Sequence record: MH252123.1
Strand: one strand, 5' to 3'
Length of the DNA: 64,000 nt
Origin: Klebsiella phage ZCKP1
Shown: positions 9,487 to 63,014 of the stretch, piece by piece
Numbering within the stretch: the first letter of the stretch is position 1
How the letters are laid out: each line of letters begins with the position of its first letter
Translations under genes and position numbers: made by a program
The notes under the pieces: model-generated
What the model was told of the DNA's origin: nothing
Database searches by the model: none
What the model saw: the letters and a program-made list of their open reading frames with translations, nothing else

Positions 9487-9822
9487 ATGGAATTTCAAGA
9501 AGCATGGGGACTTGCAAAGGATGCAATCATCCCTTTAATCGGAGTCATCTGGTTCTTTTTCAAACAAAAAATGGATAAATTCGGCTCTGATCTTGAGGAA
9601 ATGGAGGAGAAAAGTCGAGAGCTAGAGAAGAAGTTGGTCTTTGTTGAATCAACTTATGCAACTAAAGCCGAACTTACCCAGATGCTAAATCAAATTAACT
9701 CTACATTAATGGCAAATAATAACACTCTTGAGCAAAAGATTGAAAAGATTATGGACCTCAAGAATGCTACTATTCAAATGATGCTAGATGACATAGTTAA
9801 ACGTACACAGAATAAGGGGTAA
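9487..9822 (+). CDS. hypothetical membrane-anchored coiled-coil protein
   Basis: 111 aa with an N-terminal TM segment (IIPLIGVIWFFF) followed by a charged helical region. Confidence 0.4.
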   Translation: MEFQEAWGLAKDAIIPLIGVIWFFFKQKMDKFGSDLEEMEEKSRELEKKLVFVESTYATKAELTQMLNQINSTLMANNNTLEQKIEKIMDLKNATIQMMLDDIVKRTQNKG

Positions 9823-9825
9823 TTA

Positions 9826-12800
9826 ATGGCAACATTCCCAACGTATCCAGCAACGTCTCTTGAACAGGGCGTAGATCTGGTTATTTTCTCGTCCAATCAA
9901 CTTCATGATGTTATTAATGGAAGTGCGACAGAAAGTATTGAGACAGAATCAGGGTTGATACCAACCCTGAGAAAAGCCCTTGTTGATAACTTTTTCTTTA
10001 AAAGCCCATTGGATTGGGCGCAAGGCACAAATGAAACGGTTTTTAACCAACTACGTTATTTTCAGAATGGGGTATTGAGCGGTTATTATTATGCTCCTAA
10101 TGCTACATTGGTAAACCCAATCCCTATGCAAGGTACTCCAGTAGGAGATAACAACTGGGTATTGTGGGGACTGAAGACAGAACAATTGGCAACAGAAGTC
10201 ACACCTTGGGTATATTCTGGTGCAACTGGTTATGAAACAGTAATCAGTCCTCCTTACATCTTTGATAGTGCTATTGTTACAATCAATGGTGTTATTCAGG
10301 TTCTGGGAGAAGCTTTCCGCATAGAAGATAGTAAAATCATTTTATCTGAACCTTTGGGACATGATCCTGCAACAGGACTGCCAAACAAGCTTTTTGCCTA
10401 TATTGGTAAAATCGTAGCTTCCGCAGATACAGATCCTAACTTAGAAAACCGTCTTGTCAGTTTAGAAACAAAAACTGAAGAACTGACAGAAAGCATGGAT
10501 AAAGTACCTTTACAAACTATTGCTCGTAAATACGGTTTGTTGGATGATGAAGTAGCTTACGCAACAGCGGGTCAATCATTAACAGGGATTAAAGCTCTGT
10601 ATGATCCGGTAGCACAATCTTCCTACACATTGCCTCCTAACATCACAGGGACTTTAACATCTTTGTCTGTTTCTGGAGTAATGACTTATTCTGGCGGATC
10701 TGTAGACCTTTCTGCATTAGCTGTTGAACGTGGACAGTTTGTTCATTTGCCTACAAGCTTTGGTAATAACGTAACTCTGACAGCTAAAAATCAGACGATT
10801 GGGCGTGGTGCTGGTCGCTATCGTTGGGCGGGGAGTTTACCAAAAAGTATTTTAGCTTCTGATACATTGGAAACAAGTGGTGGATTAGGTCCAAATGCAT
10901 GGGTTCTAACTAATACAGAAGGACTGTTAACCCCTCGTGGTGGAACATACAACGATTTATTCGATGTTGTCTACTTGTCAGAATTTGCTAACAATACAAC
11001 TACCTATGCCACACCAGAAGCAGCTTTCCAGGCGGCACTGTTAGCAGCAAAAGCTTCGAAAAGTAAGATTCTCGACGCTTACGGTTGTGATATGACTTTC
11101 ACGACAAGCTCTTTTGATATTCAAGATATCACTTTGCGTGGGGGTGTGTTCCGTGGTCAACGCGACTATCGTGTGCAAAATGCTACAGTAGAAGGCACAA
11201 CTTTCCGTAACTCTCGTGTTATGTATTGGGGTGGTGCTGTGCGCATGTTCGATTGTTTGTGGGACGGTGCTCCTCGCGCAGGTCAAGTTGGTAGCTTGGT
11301 ATTCCAAGGCAACCCAATATCAGGTACTTTTGAAATTGATAATTGTACTTTTAAAAATGGGTTATATGGCATCCTTCAACAAGGAACAGGGGAACCAGTA
11401 ACACGCGGTGTCTTCCGTAACCTTACCTTCATGGACATGCAAGGTGATGCAATAGAACTGAACGTCATCAATAAACATTACGATGATGGTTGTGTGATTG
11501 AGAATATTTACCTGTCTAATATCGATGGGACTAACGCTCCTATTCCTCTGTCCAACTGGGGTATCGGTATCGGTGTAGCTGGTAAAGGACCGTATGGTTA
11601 CGGAATCCCTGATGATCAATATTGCAAGAATATTACAATTCGTAACGTTTTTGCAAAACGTTGTCGTCAGATTGTCCACGTAGAAGTTGGTCGTAATATT
11701 TCTATCGAAAACATTCATGGCGATCCAGATCAAACTGTATCTGTTGGGACAGGTTTGGCAACTGGCGCAGTTGTAATGTATGGAAGTAAAGATTTTACGA
11801 TTGATGGTGTTTACGGAGAGCCTAAAACAGACGGTAGCACACTTGCAAGTAATATCCGTATGATTTATTTGGAGTGGGGAACTAACGCAGTTCTGGACGA
11901 AGAGGGCAATCCGGTAGTTCCGGCACAGGGCAGACCTTCAAACCCATGCTTTAACTATTCTGTTCGTAACATTCACACCAAAACTGGGCGTGTTTTTGCA
12001 GGAGTTTCCGCTGGGCCAGGTTATGAAAACAGAGTCAGCTTTGAGAATATCCGTTGTGCTGCGTTGCAGTTGTTCGGTGTAGCTTCTTGGCTTTCAATGT
12101 CTAACATCACCTGTAATATCTTTGATTGTGTTGGTCAACCTGAATCTGGTCCAGGGACATTTTATGATGGATTCTTCCGTAGAGAAAAATCTGTTCTTGA
12201 GATGGTTAACGTAAACTGTTACCCAGATGGCAAGACTATGGTTACTGGTCGCCCACAGTGGAGCCGTTGCCGTTACTCTGATATTCATCGTGTCAACTGT
12301 AATGTTGAAGCTAATATGTATACCAATATCGCAGGTGGTATTGGAGCTATTGTAGGGACAACTGGCAAAGTTTATTACTTAGAGCCTAACCCTAGCCGAA
12401 ACATTGATGGGATGCATTTCCCAACAGGGAAGGAGTTTGACAAAGGGGATATGATAGTCAAAGCGGATAATACGTTCTTCCTTGTAACAACAAGTGGGGC
12501 ATACATTCCAGATATCCCAGCTTTCGGTATTCGAGCTACACAAGCAGGAGATACCTTCCTGACACAGAACTTGACTCCTAATGGGACAGCAACAAACGCT
12601 TCTTGGTTGTATCACTATCCTCTGTCAGCAGGAACACGTATTCGTATTCCTGGTGCTGGTGTAGGTGGAGCAGATTTGGACACAGTTATTACTCGTGCAC
12701 CTTATCAAGATAATGATACGTGGACTAACCCAGTTAAAATAGACATTGCAGATCCAATTGTAACGCCTACGAGTGCTGGAGTTAGAATCAAAACCATACC

Positions 12801-56080: not shown

Positions 56081-56437
56081 ATGAAAAAATTAATCTTAGC
56101 CACATTGCTGGCTACCGTAAGCTTCACCACTTACGCTCAAAAATTTGTAGCAGTTAAAACGGATATTGGTAAAGATGTTGTGATCACAGGCAACAAGTTT
56201 TACTATACACCTGGGAATGGTGTTCTAGAAGAGTGCAAAGATGTTGAGGCATATACAGGAAAAGAAGATAACACGGAACGTCCTTTTTATTCGATTATAG
56301 CTACTTGCAAAAATGAAATAGTAGCTATTAAACAATACAAAGATGCACCTGGAGGAGAGTACTTATTAGTCAAGAATATTAAGAGTGAAAAAACTGCAAA
56401 GTTTACAGTAATTATTTTAAAAGGAGAAACGTTCTAA
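56081..56437 (+). CDS. secreted hypothetical protein
   Basis: Start set at MKKLILATLLATVSFTTYAQ (signal peptide) with RBS AGGAGGGAAG. Confidence 0.5.
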   Translation: MKKLILATLLATVSFTTYAQKFVAVKTDIGKDVVITGNKFYYTPGNGVLEECKDVEAYTGKEDNTERPFYSIIATCKNEIVAIKQYKDAPGGEYLLVKNIKSEKTAKFTVIILKGETF

Positions 56438-57576
56438 TGAAATACACTATTTTTGGAGATGTAGCTGTTGTAAATAAGGAATATGGCGTTGAAGCTAATA
56501 AACTTCCTGCTGGAGTTTGGGTTGTCAACTGCGATCCGCACGGTAACTACTCTTTAGTGCGTGGCGAAAGTTTCTCTCTTCCGAACACTCTTTATGGGGA
56601 AACTAAAGATCGCGCCGCACATGTTATTAAAACATTTGCTCGTCGTAGTAAAGAAGGTAAAAATACTGGGGTGTTACTGACAGGGACAAAAGGCAGTGGT
56701 AAGACGATGTTAGCTAAACTGATTAGCATGTCTCTAATGTCCACAGAAGGTTTAGGTATTCCAACCATTTTGGTTACACAGCCTTACACAGATGCTGGCT
56801 TCTTAGAATTTATGAGTAAAATTACAGATCGTGCTGTTGTTTTATTTGACGAATTTGATAAAGTGTACGCTAAGAAAGAAGATCAGGAAGCACTGTTGAC
56901 CTTGTTGGATGGAACAGGAAGTGGGAATAAACTTTACATCCTCACTAAAAATAGTGGTTATATCTCGGAATATTTTGTAAACCGTCCTAGTCGTATCTAC
57001 TACAGTTTCAATTACGATAAACTGTCTAGTGAAACTATGTTAGATTACTTGGATAAGAACTTGGTAAATAAAAAGCACGTAGATAACTTCCAACGTTTAT
57101 GGGATGTTAGCACAGAGTTGTCTTTCGATGTTATTCAAGGCATTGTAGAAGAATTGAATTTCTATCCAAAAATGACTTTTAAAGAATGTCTTGAAATGAT
57201 GGGTATTTCTTTAGGGAACGATGCTAAATGGAATGTGGCTTCTATCGTAGCTAATGGCAAAACCTTGAAGGTGAATTGGATCAATAACTGGCACGACTTC
57301 ACCCCTACTAAGTTTTTGTCGGGTGCTTGTTCCCTGAACATCTATCTACAAAGTTTGAAAGATGATGAAGTGGAAGCAATGGAAACCAACAGTTATGTTA
57401 TCCTGGATGAAGATGGTGATCCACATATTGATCTATGTGCAACGGCTGATGGTCTAACTTGTGATCTGATTGAAGGTGGTAAGATTCTGGTTATGAGCAC
57501 TACACCAGGAAACACTTTGCGAGTGGTGCTGGAGCCTGTAACACAACGTTCCACTACACTTGGTAGCGTGTTCTAA
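56437..57576 (+). CDS. AAA+ ATPase
   Basis: Walker A (LLTGTKGSGKTMLAKLI) and Walker B (VVLFDEFDKV). Confidence 0.6.
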   Translation: MKYTIFGDVAVVNKEYGVEANKLPAGVWVVNCDPHGNYSLVRGESFSLPNTLYGETKDRAAHVIKTFARRSKEGKNTGVLLTGTKGSGKTMLAKLISMSLMSTEGLGIPTILVTQPYTDAGFLEFMSKITDRAVVLFDEFDKVYAKKEDQEALLTLLDGTGSGNKLYILTKNSGYISEYFVNRPSRIYYSFNYDKLSSETMLDYLDKNLVNKKHVDNFQRLWDVSTELSFDVIQGIVEELNFYPKMTFKECLEMMGISLGNDAKWNVASIVANGKTLKVNWINNWHDFTPTKFLSGACSLNIYLQSLKDDEVEAMETNSYVILDEDGDPHIDLCATADGLTCDLIEGGKILVMSTTPGNTLRVVLEPVTQRSTTLGSVF

Positions 57577-57664: not shown

Positions 57665-59125
57665 GTGCCAAAAATAGTCACTTGGGAACAATATAAAACA
57701 GATATAAAACAAGCTTATCAAGGTAAGTCTTGGACTGTTGTAGATTATATTGAGCCGTGGAACGGCAATAAAACTAAACTTAGATGCATCTGTGCTCTGC
57801 ATGGAGAATGGAAAACAACAAGCATAAATACCGCTAAACTAGGGAGGGGTTGTCCAGAATGCGGTAGGGAGATTATAAGTAAAGCAGTATCTATAAACAA
57901 ATCAAAAACCTGGGAGCAATATAAAGAAGAAGTGCAAACCACTTACAATCAGGCAGGTAAGTTTTGGACTGTTACAGGATGGCACGGAGAATGGAAAGGA
58001 TGGAATACTAAACTGGTTTGTTGTTGTGCTTTACATGGGGAGTGGAGGTCTACTTCTATATCTTCTGCGAAAAACGGGAGTGGATGCAGGAAGTGTATGG
58101 GAGAAGCAAACAGAGAAAGAACATCGATTGCATGGGAGAAACATAAAGAAGAAGTAGAAGAAGCTTATAAAGAAAAACCCTGGATTGTTAGAGGCTATGT
58201 GGAACCGTGGAACGGTTCCCGCACTAAGTTGATTTGTGAGTGTAAGGTTCATGGTCAATGGTGCACTACCACTGTAAACAGTGCTAAACAAGGGACTGGA
58301 TGCTACAGTTGTCAAAGAGAAATGACGAAACAAAGGAATACAATGGAGGATAAACAACATGTTGAAGATTTTATAAAAGCTTGTCCTGATAATGTAGAGC
58401 GTAAATATTATCGTAGCGATAGAGTAGATAGATTAGGTCGTCAGGTTTACTGGATTGTAGAATGTCCTATATGTGCAGAGGATGATTATTGTAAAGAAGG
58501 CTTATGCGATAATAAATTTGAGATGAAGATGAGTCATTTGAAAAGGGGTGGCCTTCCTTGCCGTTGTTCTAAATATTATCATTACACTCCTGAACAATGG
58601 GCCTACCGTATGACCAAAGCTTGCCAGGAACGAGGGGATCAATTTATAGGATTCATTGATAAGGTAAGCAATAACAGCAAGTTTAAATATCTATGTAGGG
58701 AGCATGGAGAGCAAACGATCACACCTACCGATTATCTCAATGGGAAAGGTTGTCCAGGCTGTAAGAACAGAAATATGCAAGAATTTTACATCAATATTAT
58801 TCTTGATGAGTACGGAGAAGACACGGGAGCTTACAAGTTGGGGATTGCAAAGGACAGTGATATCAGGATCAAAGGGCAGAATGCAAACAACAATTACTCT
58901 ATGCGCCGTATAGCATTGTTCGATCTGCCGTCCTACCAAGCTTGCAGGGCGTTAGAGAGTAAGCTAAAGTCTAAGACTGATCAGATTCTACCGTCTATTG
59001 GCTGTGTAGAACGCTTGCACATGAAAGATGGTCATAGTGAAACCTTCCTGCGCGAGGATTTGGCTATCGTCTTAAGTGCTATCAACCAAGCAGGTGGAAT
59101 AATGAGAGAGGAGGAAACATGTTAG
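57665..59125 (+). CDS. tandem Cys-rich (zinc-ribbon-like) repeat protein with C-terminal T5orf172/GIY-YIG-like domain
   Basis: Three and a half repeats of about 73 aa follow the pattern W..YK..(9)W.V..Y.EPWNG..TKL.C.C..HGEW.TT......G.GC..C. The C-terminus (YKLGIAKDSDIRIKGQNANNNYSMRRIALFDLP...ALESKLKS) resembles T5orf172. It has a GTG start with RBS AAGGGGGAGG. Confidence 0.5.
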   Translation: MPKIVTWEQYKTDIKQAYQGKSWTVVDYIEPWNGNKTKLRCICALHGEWKTTSINTAKLGRGCPECGREIISKAVSINKSKTWEQYKEEVQTTYNQAGKFWTVTGWHGEWKGWNTKLVCCCALHGEWRSTSISSAKNGSGCRKCMGEANRERTSIAWEKHKEEVEEAYKEKPWIVRGYVEPWNGSRTKLICECKVHGQWCTTTVNSAKQGTGCYSCQREMTKQRNTMEDKQHVEDFIKACPDNVERKYYRSDRVDRLGRQVYWIVECPICAEDDYCKEGLCDNKFEMKMSHLKRGGLPCRCSKYYHYTPEQWAYRMTKACQERGDQFIGFIDKVSNNSKFKYLCREHGEQTITPTDYLNGKGCPGCKNRNMQEFYINIILDEYGEDTGAYKLGIAKDSDIRIKGQNANNNYSMRRIALFDLPSYQACRALESKLKSKTDQILPSIGCVERLHMKDGHSETFLREDLAIVLSAINQAGGIMREEETC

Positions 59126-59497: not shown

Positions 59498-59686
59498 ATG
59501 GCACGTTTAGCAGACCATGAAATCTTTAAACCTATTCTGAACCACTATGATGAACTTAAAGCAGTGTTGGATTGTTATAGAGAGGATGAAGAACGTTTGG
59601 AAATCAATCTTAAGATAGTTCTGATGAAAGCTTTTCAAGACGGGCAAGCTAAAGTCTTAGAAGGCATGAAAAATGAGAATAACTGA
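59498..59686 (+). CDS. hypothetical protein
   Basis: Start set at the ATG (MARLADHEIF) that has RBS AAAGGAG. Confidence 0.4.
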   Translation: MARLADHEIFKPILNHYDELKAVLDCYREDEERLEINLKIVLMKAFQDGQAKVLEGMKNENN

Positions 59687-60215
59687 CGAATATGTATTCT
59701 TCTTTTCACATAAAGATGTGTTTAGTAATTGGTATATTGCACCCTTTACAGAAACCGAACCAGGTTACAATCAGACATTTAATTGTGTCGAACAATACAT
59801 GATGTGGCGTAAAGCTTTGCTTTTTAATGATCACAACACTGCACAGGCTATTCTGACTCATAGTTTGATACGGAAAGATGAGAAGATCCAAGCTTATTAC
59901 AAACGTATGGGTAGGGCAGTGTCGGATTTTGATAACAACGTATGGGAAGAGAACCGTGAGCGTATTGTTATGCGAGGTTTATGCTTGAAATATGTACAGA
60001 ATCCAGATTTGTATGCAGACTTACACCTTTACCAATACAAAACGTTTGTTGAAGCAAGTCCTTACGATAAGGTTTACGGTATTGGAATGGGAATGTATGA
60101 ACCAGGGGTGCTAAATCCGGTCAACTGGAAAGGGCAGAATCTTTTAGGCAAATATCATAACAAACTGATCGAAATACTTTTCCCAGACAAAATACCGCAA
60201 AGACGATATTTGTGA
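59673..60215 (+). CDS. NADAR (YbiA/DUF1768) domain protein
   Basis: FFSHKDVFSNWYIAPFTETE...FNCVEQYMMWRKALLFND matches the NADAR signature (F-FSNF...F...EQ..M..KA..F.D). Confidence 0.65.
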   Translation: MRITDEYVFFFSHKDVFSNWYIAPFTETEPGYNQTFNCVEQYMMWRKALLFNDHNTAQAILTHSLIRKDEKIQAYYKRMGRAVSDFDNNVWEENRERIVMRGLCLKYVQNPDLYADLHLYQYKTFVEASPYDKVYGIGMGMYEPGVLNPVNWKGQNLLGKYHNKLIEILFPDKIPQRRYL

Positions 60216-60270
60216 TATTTTAACTTTTTTCATTTTTAGAACAAAGGCGTCACTTTGTAGCACAGAAATA

Positions 60271-60306
60271 AGGCTCCTACAGCACCGTAGAGAGCCTATT
60301 ATTTTG
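60271..60306 (+). terminator. terminator after the NADAR gene
   Basis: Stem AGGCTC...GAGCCT followed by ATTATTTTG. Confidence 0.4.
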
Positions 60307-60457
60307 TCCTATACAAACCCTTGTCTTTTTCAGTTTGCATCACTAGGATTCGATCTGAGTGGGTTCCTGAAGGTCTGCCAATAAGATTAAAGGTTATCTC
60401 AAATTCCCATTACCTATTATCTCAAAAATCCCTCAAATTATTTAAACTTTTTAAGAA

Positions 60458-60644
60458 TTTACAAAAGTGAAAGTTGAAAACCAAAATTTAAAGTTTAGGA
60501 AAATTATCTTAAAATGTCAGATACAAAACAAAACTCAAAAGTCAAGGAAAATTTTAAAAATTTTGCGCGCCCACAGTATTTAAAGTTTTTTTGCTTTTAC
60601 AAAAATGAAAGTACAAAAGCAAAATTTAAAGTTTACAAAAATTT
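60458..60644. repeat. two about 48-bp AT-rich direct repeats (60458-60505 and 60597-60644) plus short TATCTCAAA repeats upstream
   Basis: tttacaaaagtgaaagttgaaaaccaaaatttaaagtttaggaaaatt versus tttacaaaaatgaaagtacaaaagcaaaatttaaagtttacaaaaatt, about 40/48 identical. Confidence 0.6.
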
Positions 60645-60655
60645 ATGCAGATGGG

Positions 60656-60762
60656 AATGAGAAGAGTTCTCATATGGAAATGCAAATGATAATGATTCGC
60701 ATTTAGGTTTATAAATGAGATTGATTCTTATTTGATAAGGTAAATGATAATCATTCTCATTT
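60656..60762. promoter_or_regulatory. array of four about 20-bp palindromic operator-like sites, Fur-box-like
   Basis: The sites are AATGAGAAGAGTTCTCATAT (60656), AATGATAATGATTCGCATTT (60685), AATGAGATTGATTCTTATTT (60713) and AATGATAATCATTCTCATTT (60743). They are spaced 28-30 bp apart. The last is a near-consensus Fur box (GATAATGATAATCATTATC). Confidence 0.5.
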
Positions 60763-60994
60763 AGAAAATGACGCGCAGGGGCGGTGTTTGTCTCGCGCTC
60801 CCGTGTCCCCTCGCCATGTAATAAGAATAACAGATCCAGCCAGGAAAGCAAGCGATTATTTTATCTTTACATTTCTTTACAAATATATAGCGCCCAGCCT
60901 ACCGGCGATCAACCTTCCAACCAGTGCCCCTGGTATGTTAGCCCCGCCTTTACGCCGTGGGGTGGCGCTTCCTCTTCTGTATGTAAAACAGTAT

Positions 60995-61034
60995 AAGCCC
61001 GATCCCTGGGCTTGTCAAGATTATTTTTTGTTTT
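60995..61034. terminator. stem-loop plus T-tract (candidate bidirectional terminator)
   Basis: AAGCCC gatccct GGGCTT followed by gtcaagaTTATTTTTTGTTTT. Confidence 0.4.
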
Positions 61035-61287
61035 CTTGCCAGGATAGGACACCTAACCAAAAATACATATCGCCCCGCGCCCCTGGTGGGATCTTGCTTT
61101 CCCCGCCGCCACTGCAAGCCCATAGATAACCATTTGCGAACGTATCAAAATGATCTATCTCTTCCACCTTATGATCGCCCAGGTTGAGAACGGTTTCAAC
61201 CTTTAAGCCCGTTGCGCTTGCTACCTGGTGCACCGTGCCGCCTTGCCAGCCCAATGAGTGCATAAGGTGTAATGTAGTATTTGTCAT
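61021..61287 (-). CDS. hypothetical protein (88 aa) in GC-rich island
   Basis: ORF with RBS AAAGGGCG. Candidate promoter on the - strand is TTGCTA-17-TATCAT at about 61335-61365. Its GC content is much higher than the phage average. Confidence 0.35.
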   Translation of the reverse strand: MTNTTLHLMHSLGWQGGTVHQVASATGLKVETVLNLGDHKVEEIDHFDTFANGYLWACSGGGESKIPPGARGDMYFWLGVLSWQENKK

Positions 61288-61396
61288 GGTATCGCCCTTT
61301 CTTTGATGTGCGCCCTGGTTGGCGCGGTAGAAAGATGATAGCCCTTTCTTTTATATATAGCAAGCAAAAAGAAAATAAAAAAGATTGAAAAAGTGG

Positions 61397-61425
61397 TTGA
61401 CGTTCCTCACCTGGTAGCGTAGTAT
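61397..61425 (+). promoter_or_regulatory. sigma70 promoter (TTGACG-17-TAGTAT) with A/T-rich UP-like element upstream
   Basis: It is followed by a leader of about 130 nt before the ATG at 61561. Confidence 0.5.
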
Positions 61426-61560
61426 TCATCTTGTCGAGGGGGGCGCGGCACAACGACAATAAACAACAGGAGGGCGCAATGTAGGACGGGCAAAGGTGAG
61501 GATCTCCATAATCCACCGTCCACCAACAAAAAACATCATTCATCACCTGGAGTTAAAATC

Positions 61561-61758
61561 ATGGCAACATTGCACATAGTAGCGAAAGCAGGACAAATCA
61601 GCGTCGTGGTAAACGGTTTTACTGAGTTCAGTCATCCCCAGGATGATCATGAAACGGTTTTATCTTTTATTGATTCCTTGTTAGAAATGGGAGTCATTAC
61701 AGAAGACCAGCACGCTACAAAATGCAAGCGCGTTAATCAAATTGCAGGGATAGAATAA
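61561..61758 (+). CDS. early small protein
   Basis: 65 aa, RBS GGAG. Confidence 0.45.
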   Translation: MATLHIVAKAGQISVVVNGFTEFSHPQDDHETVLSFIDSLLEMGVITEDQHATKCKRVNQIAGIE

Positions 61759-61764
61759 AAAGTA

Positions 61765-61823
61765 TTGACAACAAACAACAACCTGATAAGATGTATCACA
61801 TAGGGCGGGAAGTGGTTTCCCGC
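61765..61823 (+). promoter_or_regulatory. early promoter module P1 (TTGACA-16-TGaTAAGAT, then conserved TATCACATAGGGCGG and a stem-loop)
   Basis: -35 at 61765-70 and extended -10 at 61784-92. The hairpin GGGCGGGAAgtggTTTCCCGC lies at 61803-61823. Confidence 0.6.
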
Positions 61824-61848
61824 TCGTAACAGAAGAGAGATTATCATC

Positions 61849-62121
61849 ATGGCATCATATAGCGCAACAATGATCGTAGCTGGCACAACTGGTAAACCTA
61901 TGAGCGGTGGCGGATCTTTCGCTAATATCAATATTGACGGGCGTTTATCCCTGGACGCAGCGATCGCCATTGCACGGGAAACATTTAAGAAAGAATGTAA
62001 TTTCAACAAGCAAGATTATCTCGGTTTCGCTATTGAAAAAACCGCGCGCTTTGTTGATTATAAAAGCCCGAAAATGGTTGACACTACATTAAAAGCGCAA
62101 GATGTAGCGTTTTTGCTTTAA
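61849..62121 (+). CDS. early small protein
   Basis: 90 aa, RBS AGAAGAGAG. Confidence 0.45.
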   Translation: MASYSATMIVAGTTGKPMSGGGSFANINIDGRLSLDAAIAIARETFKKECNFNKQDYLGFAIEKTARFVDYKSPKMVDTTLKAQDVAFLL

Positions 62122-62124
62122 GGC

Positions 62125-62180
62125 TTGACATTAACGAATAATTTGTTAATATGTTACATAAAGCGGGAATAGTTCCCGCT
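62125..62180 (+). promoter_or_regulatory. early promoter module P2 (TTGACA-16-TAATAT plus stem-loop AGCGGGAAtagTTCCCGCT)
   Basis: -35 at 62125-30 and -10 at 62147-52. The hairpin lies at 62162-62180. Confidence 0.55.
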
Positions 62181-62197
62181 GTTTGTAAGGTGGTAGA

Positions 62198-62455
62198 ATG
62201 TTTTACATCAAATTAAAAGGTCACGTGATCGCGTTCAAAGATAACGCTTTTTACAGATTAGCAAAATATGCGTTAATACATCCCCACTATGTTTATATAA
62301 GGGGGCGTGATGAAATAAATATCTTTGATCAAACAACATGCGAAAACATCGAGATCCGCAAGGTTGGCGTACGTGATTATCGTACATCTTTCTACCCTTG
62401 CAAGGATTCAGCAAGTCTTTTTAAAGTATGCCAATTGTTGAAAAAAGGTGGTTAA
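62198..62455 (+). CDS. early small protein
   Basis: 85 aa, RBS AAGGTGG. Confidence 0.45.
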   Translation: MFYIKLKGHVIAFKDNAFYRLAKYALIHPHYVYIRGRDEINIFDQTTCENIEIRKVGVRDYRTSFYPCKDSASLFKVCQLLKKGG

Positions 62456-62456
62456 T

Positions 62457-63014
62457 ATGGGCCGCGAATATGTGATCCAGTCTTGGGTAAAACACGAAGC
62501 AGATGATCCGCGCATCATTCCCGATCATCTTATCGATGAATCCACGGGATATAGCGGTGAGCAAATAGGTAACAGATCAGCACGTAGTAACGGCAACGTA
62601 AAAGCGCGCTATGTGCGCCCTGGTTGGCTGGCAAATGGTAACGCTGATTTATCCAGCGCGGGAGATCCTAGCGACGGCGCGAAAGATAATCCCTTGTACA
62701 AAGTTGATCCGGCTTTTCGTGTCCTGGATGAATACCCCAGCAAGATAGCGGCGCTTGATGAAGCTCTGGAAAGTAAGCGCATCACCTGGACCGCTTACAA
62801 CATGGCAAAAAACGTACTTGATGGTAAGCTGATCCAGGCTGAAAGAAAATTAGCCAAAATTGCAGCCATAGCCCAGGAGGAAGACGAGGAGACAACGGAA
62901 GAGGAAGAGTACGAAGAGATCCCGCCGTTGTTGTGTGTTGATGCTTTTCCTGATTATCAGCCGACAGAGGAAGAAAAAAGGATCGCGCTAGAAAACTTTG
63001 AAAATAGTCTTTGA
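62457..63014 (+). CDS. early protein with strongly acidic C-terminal region
   Basis: Start at ATG 62457 with RBS AAGGTGG. It ends in a poly-Glu/Asp tail (EEDEETTEEEEYEE). Confidence 0.45.
   Translation: MGREYVIQSWVKHEADDPRIIPDHLIDESTGYSGEQIGNRSARSNGNVKARYVRPGWLANGNADLSSAGDPSDGAKDNPLYKVDPAFRVLDEYPSKIAALDEALESKRITWTAYNMAKNVLDGKLIQAERKLAKIAAIAQEEDEETTEEEEYEEIPPLLCVDAFPDYQPTEEEKRIALENFENSL

Follow-up and report, generated by a model that had tools for sequence, protein, structure and literature searches.

In a 64,000-nt stretch of the genome of Klebsiella phage ZCKP1 (MH252123.1; the whole stretch is called the window here), we found a non-coding hub with four regularly spaced palindromes whose motif, judged from the sequence by matrix searches in both directions, matches enterobacterial Fur in its binding specificity. 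We tentatively propose, in a reading slightly more open to doubt than to belief, that the four palindromes bind the Fur-Fe2+ dimer of the host and act in cis as an operator array that would make transcription across the hub iron-dependent. The window is DNA of a phAPEC8-like myovirus (Phapecoctavirus, Stephanstirmvirinae) and shows 99.4–99.6% identity to phages SKA64 and ESCO5 over positions 60200–61000. The hub is about 800 nt long and lies between a gene for a NADAR-domain protein on its left and a gene for a protein of 88 aa on its right. The G+C content of the region is 24–32%, versus about 39% for the window as a whole.

An earlier note on this DNA had described four sites of about 20 bp with a spacing of 28–30 bp. 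The sites are real, but they are 21-mers and are spaced exactly 29 nt apart. Box 1 (60655–60675; GAATGAGAAGAGTTCTCATAT) scores 16.2 bits with a matrix derived from Escherichia coli sites and holds the one perfect palindrome that had been pointed out, ATGAGAAgagTTCTCAT at 60657–60673. Box 2 (60678–60704; 25.8 bits with the same matrix) is a composite of two overlapping boxes that start at 60678 and at 60684 (AAATGATAATGATTCGCATTT), and their offset of 6 bp is the classic arrangement of overlapping 19-bp Fur boxes. Box 3 (60713–60733; AAATGAGATTGATTCTTATTT) scores 23.8 bits, while box 4 (60742–60762; AAATGATAATCATTCTCATTT) is the strongest with 29.2 bits, the top score of the window. A match to the Fur box at 14 of 15 positions had also been claimed and is found at 60745–60759 (TGATAATCATTCTCA), with one mismatch to the 7-1-7 motif TGATAATnATTATCA; positions 60687–60701 have two mismatches to the same motif, and positions 60740–60758 agree with the 19-bp E. 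coli Fur consensus GATAATGATAATCATTATC at 16 of its 19 positions. With at most three mismatches allowed, the latter consensus matches once in 64 kb (box 4) versus 0.02 matches expected. The consensus of the array, ATGAKANNNNTTCKYAT, was drawn up post hoc and matches the four sites only within the window, versus 0.04 expected. A matrix built from the four sites gives them 23–33 bits, and no other position of the window exceeds 13.5 bits.

The specificity of the motif was assessed with this position matrix, made from the four window sites alone, by scanning three 50-kb stretches (150 kb) of E. coli MG1655. The top four matches in the ent/fep stretch are fepB-entC (twice), fepA-fes and fepD-entS, all known Fur-controlled divergent promoter regions, and the top two in the fec stretch are the fecIR and fecA promoters. 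In the fhuA stretch, the fhuA promoter ranks second, after a site between map and rpsB. Of the five matches that reach at least 16 bits in the 150 kb, four fall on canonical Fur promoters. The site between map and rpsB (AATTGAGAATCATTCTGAATT; MG1655 position about 189,580) reaches 19.6 bits with the phage-derived matrix, above the fhuA operator. In the reverse search, a matrix made from the seven operator sites found in E. coli gave the array sites the four top ranks among all positions of the 64-kb window, with the scores listed above, followed by a position at 16.1 bits; this test is partly circular, as the E. coli sites had been picked with the phage matrix. The check by Fur matrix that the earlier note had called for thus finds the canonical E. 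coli operators from the phage sites and the array from the E. coli sites. Its interpretation is thus supported in part, in that its description of the sites as Fur-box-like holds strictly, in both search directions.

The array is present in all syntenic relatives examined, so that its absence from such relatives, named beforehand as a ground for refutation, fails as an objection. One to five boxes occupy the same position in all rV5-like and phi92-like groups examined, namely Phapecoctavirus, Justusliebigvirus, Certrevirus, Seunavirus, Mydovirus, Vequintavirus and unclassified relatives. Four to five boxes are found in Justusliebigvirus (phages phi92, Paula, and Serratia KKP_3264) and in Certrevirus (CR8 and F1M1E), three to four in the unclassified Stephanstirmvirinae phage KP13-26, three in Vequintavirus HeinrichReichert (one in its close relative W70), two in Mydovirus KB57 and in Seunavirus GAP31, and a single one in the Seunavirus phages SSE121 and PVP-SE1. 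The identity between the window and phi92 is 48% in the left flank, 58% in the AT-rich repeats of the hub and 59% in the array, and the boxes are nonetheless kept. The position of box 4 is kept in every relative examined, invariably 41 nt from GGTGWTTGTCTC. Its distance to the ACAT initiator of a predicted leftward promoter, P_B (see below), is 53 nt in the window and 53–56 nt in the relatives.

BLAST and a pattern scan also revealed the same motif in unrelated virulent phages of Enterobacterales: T5-like phages, RaK2-like jumbo phages and one further phage contig. The spacing seen most often is again 29 bp, with 6-bp variants. Sites in independent phages reach the maximum of the window matrix (33.1 bits), versus 16–23 bits for the host operators. 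In T5 (AY587007, 9472–9637), the boxes coincide with palindromes E, F, G, H, and I and direct repeats C1–C4 as annotated for the ‘injection stop signal’ region. Palindrome G (AAATGAGAATCATTATCATTT) attains the maximum matrix score, and most of a 30-nt stretch is common to box 2 of the window and the palindrome G region. The T5 array lies 7.8% into the genome, on the boundary of the first-step-transfer DNA; major nick 1 (9661–9668) lies just past it. In a review-style preprint on 25 T5-like phages, these palindromes were described as extremely conserved and their function as ‘impossible to guess’ (Davison, 2020), and the text makes no mention of Fur or iron. The T5 region (Repeat Region 3) resembles the hub in its motif, in a base spacing of 29 bp varied by 6-bp steps and in its setting, a large non-coding region adjoined by direct repeats and early genes. 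It differs in that T5 has DnaA-box inverted repeats (IRD'/IRC') and DRD repeats, both absent from the hub of the window, whereas T5 lacks the GC-rich module and the promoter P_B described below. In addition, the T5 region falls inside a 10-kb terminal repeat. Another T5-like phage, Salmonella phage 3sent1, has about ten boxes between DnaA-box repeats and GTCGGATTTGCACA repeats.

Arrays of about five boxes occur in RaK2-like jumbo-phage contigs (345,809, 359,777, and 366,160 bp). One of these contigs also has a single box followed by a GC hairpin and a perfect leftward promoter (TTGACA-17-TATTAT), which is the module of the rV5-like phages. In the RaK2-like phage fENko-Kae01 (OR228459), the hub and promoter module lie 565–1235 nt from the physical left end, inside a direct terminal repeat of 19.7 kb. 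The other contig is an 11-kb phage contig with a small terminase gene; its four boxes have identical right halves and are situated in a non-coding gap of 1.6 kb, the last three being 29 nt apart. No Fur homologue is encoded in any of the box-carrying phage groups (rV5/phi92-like, T5-like, RaK2-like and the other contig), and a phage-encoded Fur was rejected. The 88-aa gene next to the hub is absent from the T5-like, RaK2-like, and Certrevirus phages that carry boxes. The motif found across these phage groups is thus most economically explained by a host factor that they share. By the same token, the suggestion that the sites are operators of a dimeric regulator of the phage is unlikely: the motif, mostly with a 29-bp spacing, is found in unrelated families that share hosts and have no obvious regulator in common.

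The position of the hub in the genome shows a further parallel with T5. Phage BME3, a phi92-like phage, has a reported direct terminal repeat of 342 bp (PMC12210895). Its record (PP239276) starts with 1.4 kb of non-coding DNA containing Fur boxes at 52, 247, 1158, and 1216, the first two of which are within the reported repeat. The hub array of BME3 is found at 11,876–11,989, corresponding to 8.1% of the genome, and the stretch from the end to the hub contains all of the small early genes. The order from the genome end inward is the same in BME3 and T5, namely early genes, host-factor module, Fur array, direct repeats and the remainder of the genome. This parallel is striking, but it rests on one GenBank record whose end is irregular, with N bases and one partial copy too many; the terminal repeat is accordingly to be taken as reported only. 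The hub of the jumbo phages departs from the rule of about 8%. Beyond the right edge of the window, about 10.9 kb from the hub, Phapecoctavirus has a terminus-like region homologous to the start of BME3.

To the right of box 4 follows a non-coding, GC-rich module (about 50% G+C) that is 89% identical to that of phi92. Two leftward promoters of the phage's own early class are predicted here. P_B (60824–60851, minus strand) is a sigma-70 promoter, TTGCTT-16-TATTCT followed by ACAT, with hexamers conserved between genera and a spacer of drifting sequence. P1 (60981–61018, minus strand) reads TTGACA-17-TATACT-ACAT, agrees with the consensus at 11 of 12 positions, is conserved in the alignment and overlaps a bidirectional terminator hairpin (60995–61013). 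Both share their architecture with four early promoters on the plus strand of the window (61765, 62125, 63202, and 63653). The class as a whole has TTGACA-16/18-TAnnnT, 3–5 nt and ACAT, and each of its transcripts carries a 5'-terminal hairpin rich in G+C (AGGGCGG...CCGCTC). The predicted leader of the P_B transcript (60763–60819, minus strand) begins with ACAT at 60819–60816, continues into a GC-rich hairpin, the loop of which (GAGACAAWCACC) is conserved, and ends where box 4 starts. Read by eye, the G-U wobble pairs of this first hairpin fit the minus strand only. When single leader sequences are folded, their energies do not surpass those of shuffled sequence (z near 0, with CR8 as the exception), and because of these folding energies no structured RNA is claimed; the hairpin is a lead. 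Targets in the window complementary to the conserved loop GGTGTTTGTCTC are no more frequent than expected by chance.

A CpxR-type tandem box, GTAAA-N5-GTAAA, is located at 60866–60880 on the minus strand, 14 nt upstream of the -35 of P_B. It is the sole exact match in the 64-kb window, with 0.33 expected, so that it is not significant alone. Tandem GTAAA is the consensus of the CpxR box (PMC9603713), and the putative box has the form GTAAA-N(4–8)-GTAAA upstream of a -35. It is kept in eight relatives at either 5 nt or 14–15 nt from the -35, distances about one helical turn apart. As in CpxR-activated promoters, an exact box stands just upstream of a weak -35, and the helical phase is kept by an indel of 9–10 nt between subfamilies; in the window, however, OmpR-type half-sites (TTTACA) fit equally well. 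A jumbo-phage version of the module has no CpxR-type box and a consensus -35 (TTGACA); a GTAAA-N5-GTAAA motif does occur in another RaK2-like hub (at about 3605 in the compared sequence). These features hint that envelope stress may also feed into the hub through the CpxR-type box. Directly after box 4, a conserved hexamer nAGAAT (GAAAAT in the window, 60764–60769) is found in all lineages. It may serve a rightward, Fur-overlapped promoter as its -10, or it may be the U-rich tail, on the minus strand, behind the P_B hairpin.

Within the GC-rich module lies a highly conserved core, CTACCGGCGATC...GGGGTGGCG...CCTCTTCT (60885–60980), present in about 230 phage records, in which one hairpin, read by eye, shows a compensatory change from A-U to G-C. 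A conserved open reading frame in the module is ruled out by indels that are not multiples of three. The Rfam search of 59500–62500 gave no match at E-values up to 1, and RNAalifold yielded a weak consensus fold for the 220-nt module on both strands (-24 and -26 kcal/mol). A host origin of the module was rejected, as blastn against 5,426 E. coli genomes gave no match. Together with the 88-aa gene, the module forms an island of conservation relative to phi92 (60763–61287; module 89%, gene 98.5% identity) between flanks of 48–59% and upstream genes that can barely be aligned, which suggests either a recent exchange between genera or a very strong constraint at the nucleotide level.

From the specificity, clustering, spacing, conservation and geometry of the sites, we infer occupancy by Fur, a controlled promoter and a consequence downstream, which may be pictured as follows. 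The conserved core would consist of a single box held at constant distance from the P_B/hairpin module, and the three extra boxes would raise occupancy. In iron-replete cells, Fur-Fe2+ would sit on the boxes and block transcription across the array; the leftward early transcripts from P_B and P1 would halt before the AT-rich repeats, and a rightward promoter overlapping box 4 would be shut. In iron-starved cells, Fur would depart and transcription would pass the array. Several points weigh against this proposal. Binding of Fur to the boxes and expression in this phage are predictions from sequence. Relative to P_B, the better supported of the two promoters, box 4 is situated at about +53 to +74 and is thus clear of the core promoter elements; repression of P_B would therefore have to work as a roadblock and not by the classical Fur mechanism. 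The candidate rightward promoter is spanned by box 4, with nAGAAT as -10 and, in the Vequintavirinae only, TTGAAT as -35 from the left edge of the box; in the window its -35 is poor (GTAAAT) and its start would fall inside the hairpin stem. The T5-like arrays are not beside a comparable promoter module, so that a purely promoter-operator role may not generalize. Blastn found no counterpart of the array in the 5,426 E. coli genomes, and we know of no described host Fur operator with an architecture of discrete sites spaced by 29 bp.

The enterobacterial Fur boxes (fepA-fes, fepB-entC, fhuA, fecIR, fecA) share the sequence specificity and the dyad symmetry of the array, and the composite site of the window has two boxes offset by 6 bp as they do. 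The phage sites, in contrast, are carried by a virulent phage genome, are closer to the consensus than the host operators, form four discrete sites with a strict 29-bp period where the host boxes overlap in 6-bp phase, and do not clearly cover a -35/-10 pair. Host-regulator sites in phage control DNA are familiar from lambda (IHF at cos and att, DnaA near pR and ori), from LexA sites in temperate phages and from the control of stx1 by Fur in Shiga-toxin prophages, where the sites are likewise those of an abundant host regulator. The hub differs from these cases by combining Fur with a strictly virulent phage and a multi-copy array across unrelated families.

The left half of the hub is occupied by AT-rich direct repeats (24–27% G+C). 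Two copies of TTATCTCAAA (60394–60426, plus strand), which the earlier note had reported ahead of the repeats, were recovered at 60394 and 60417 by repeat search and motif scan. The two direct repeats of about 48 bp are present as well, but their extent is larger, each copy being 72 nt long (60434–60505 and 60572–60643, plus strand). The copies are 82% identical in the alignment, and a partial third copy with 73% identity lies at 60522–60554 on the same strand, giving about 2.5 copies in total. The motif ATTTAAASTTT occurs four times in them (60440, 60486, 60578, and 60624), twice in the first copy, which also contains a promoter-like TTTACA-18-CAAAAT. The relatives have three genus-specific repeats of about 65–70 nt in place of these AT-rich repeats. 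In the Vequintavirinae there are three direct repeats of about 64 nt with (A/G)GTACTCGATC at this place, and the repeats lie at 2230–2440, 2260–2440, and 2200–2400 in three compared sequences. The hubs of RaK2-like phages contain CAGTACTG many times over. Both the GTACTCGATC- and the CAGTACTG-type repeats have the look of protein-binding sites that are particular to one lineage and accompany the shared Fur boxes.

The left border of the hub is formed by an intrinsic terminator hairpin (60270–60300, plus strand) that ends the upstream operon; phAPEC8 has an annotated terminator at the equivalent position. Before it lies the NADAR-domain gene (59673–60215, plus strand; PF08719, E = 1.8e-35), which is labeled ‘GTP cyclohydrolase II’ in several GenBank records but encodes a NADAR-domain protein. 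Further upstream, a gene at 57665–59125 encodes a protein of 486 aa in which the CapR homology domain (PF21817) is represented by five stretches, and a gene at 56437–57576 encodes an AAA-type ATPase of 379 aa. On the right, the 88-aa gene (61021–61287, minus strand) is a homologue of phi92 gp224 (phrog_19316, function unknown), with 98.5% nucleotide identity to the phi92 copy. The records are in conflict here: phAPEC8 has a plus-strand open reading frame of 113 aa, whereas anhysbys and phi92 have the 88-aa gene on the minus strand. We rejected the plus-strand frame of the phAPEC8 annotation (60788–61129), as conservation favors the overlapping minus-strand gene. Residues 18–37 of the 88-aa protein resemble a helix-turn-helix when judged by eye, and the Pfam search of the protein gave no domain, including no DNA-binding domain. 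Small early genes on the plus strand follow to the right of the hub, each with a promoter of the early class ahead of it. The hub had been described as a transcription divergence between modules, which is right in part; the genes that flank it are both on the plus strand, yet one gene, that of the 88-aa protein, and two early-class promoters do point leftward inside it. The ‘attL/attR’ features annotated at the hub of Salmonella phage R7 were discarded, as they are merely an 80-nt overlap between the record ends.

Other roles for the boxes have to be weighed against an iron-dependent operator array. Fur might act as an architectural factor, with the array and the direct repeats forming a nucleoprotein complex at an origin, a packaging or terminus site or a T5-type injection stop, analogous to IHF at lambda cos and DnaA at origins. 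This role, which we regard as rather unlikely, would accord with the coincidence of the T5 boxes with the injection-stop palindromes E–I and repeats C at 7.8% of the genome (a set whose function Davison could not guess), with the location of the fENko-Kae01 hub and of two BME3 boxes in terminal repeats, with the BME3 hub array at 8.1% and the order from the genome end common to BME3 and T5, and with the iteron-like, genus-specific repeats to the left of the boxes. It fits less well with the single box kept by the Seunaviruses SSE121 and PVP-SE1, and the positional evidence is limited by the unmapped termini of the window phage and the irregular end of the BME3 record. To our knowledge, there is also no precedent for Fur as an architectural factor. 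As for a replication origin in particular, nothing beyond the AT-richness and the genus-specific direct repeats speaks for it. Neither the DnaA nor the IHF consensus (TTWTNCACA, WATCARNNNNTTR) is found in 60200–61400, the minimum of the GC skew lies at about 53–54 kb, where it follows gene orientation, and not at the hub, and there is no initiator gene near the hub. A different use of Fur, which we consider improbable, would be that of a sink or decoy: near-consensus boxes on the replicating genome would soak up Fur and thereby de-repress iron uptake by the host, which would provide phage enzymes with iron, or keep Fur off AT-rich phage promoters. In the Fur titration assay (FURTA), one Fur box on a multicopy plasmid suffices to titrate Fur, and both the matrix-maximum scores of sites in independent phages and the roughly ten boxes per genome reached by T5-like phages would suit such a function. 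It is weakened, however, by the relatives with a single box at the conserved position, which indicate that the size of the array is not the conserved property, and by the fixed distance to the promoter/hairpin module, which it leaves unexplained. In addition, T5 degrades the host DNA within minutes, which would make de-repression of the host pointless.

Two further alternatives turn on the DNA next to the array. The palindromes might be bound by a dimeric, phage-encoded protein with Fur-like specificity, for which the adjacent 88-aa protein is the candidate. Repressor genes often adjoin their own operators, and the helix-turn-helix-like segment would agree with this; however, the distribution of the protein does not fit that of the boxes, Pfam finds no DNA-binding domain in it, none of these phages has a Fur-family gene, and the motif retrieves host Fur operators with high specificity. 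We therefore dropped the 88-aa protein as binder of the boxes on account of its distribution and the missing domain, and consider a phage-encoded binder very improbable altogether. Alternatively, box 4 might be the operator of a Fur-repressed rightward promoter that produces, only under iron starvation, a non-coding RNA of about 210 nt (approximately 60775–60980) as an analogue of RyhB. Such an RNA would make sense of the classical Fur geometry in the Vequintavirinae, where the box lies between TTGAAT and CAGAAT, of a terminator-like hairpin on the plus strand (60953–60967) followed by a pyrimidine-rich tract, and of the non-coding core without a conserved open reading frame in about 230 records. 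We nevertheless find it quite unlikely, in view of the absence of an Rfam match, the weak consensus fold on both strands, the G-U pairs of the first hairpin (read by eye) in favor of a minus-strand RNA, the poor -35 in the window phage and the two strong leftward promoters that oppose it.

Fur boxes and the use of host factors by phages are both known already, and our search of the literature on Fur and phages found no description of Fur boxes in virulent phage genomes. What is new, within the literature searched, is a conserved Fur-box array in strictly virulent phages, across unrelated families and coinciding with the T5 palindromes. It is conceivable, albeit unlikely, that the large virulent phages of Enterobacterales (T5-like, rV5/phi92/phAPEC8-like and RaK2-like) have host Fur-box arrays in common as a cis-element that marks the boundary of the first-expressed segment and couples the earliest steps of infection to Fur occupancy and hence to iron status. 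The steps so coupled could be the pause in DNA entry, early transcription or the start of replication; the injection-stop palindromes of T5 would then be Fur sites, and in the phAPEC8- and phi92-like phages the hub would delimit an equivalent terminal segment, amounting to about 8% of the genome. The motif gives the T5 injection-stop palindromes a concrete, testable identity. If Fur does bind, these phages would read the iron status of the host at the hub where early transcription starts, and the CpxR-type box might let them sense envelope stress there as well. Early phage development may be tied to iron, whose availability is strongly variable in the gut and during infection, which would be relevant to phage therapy.

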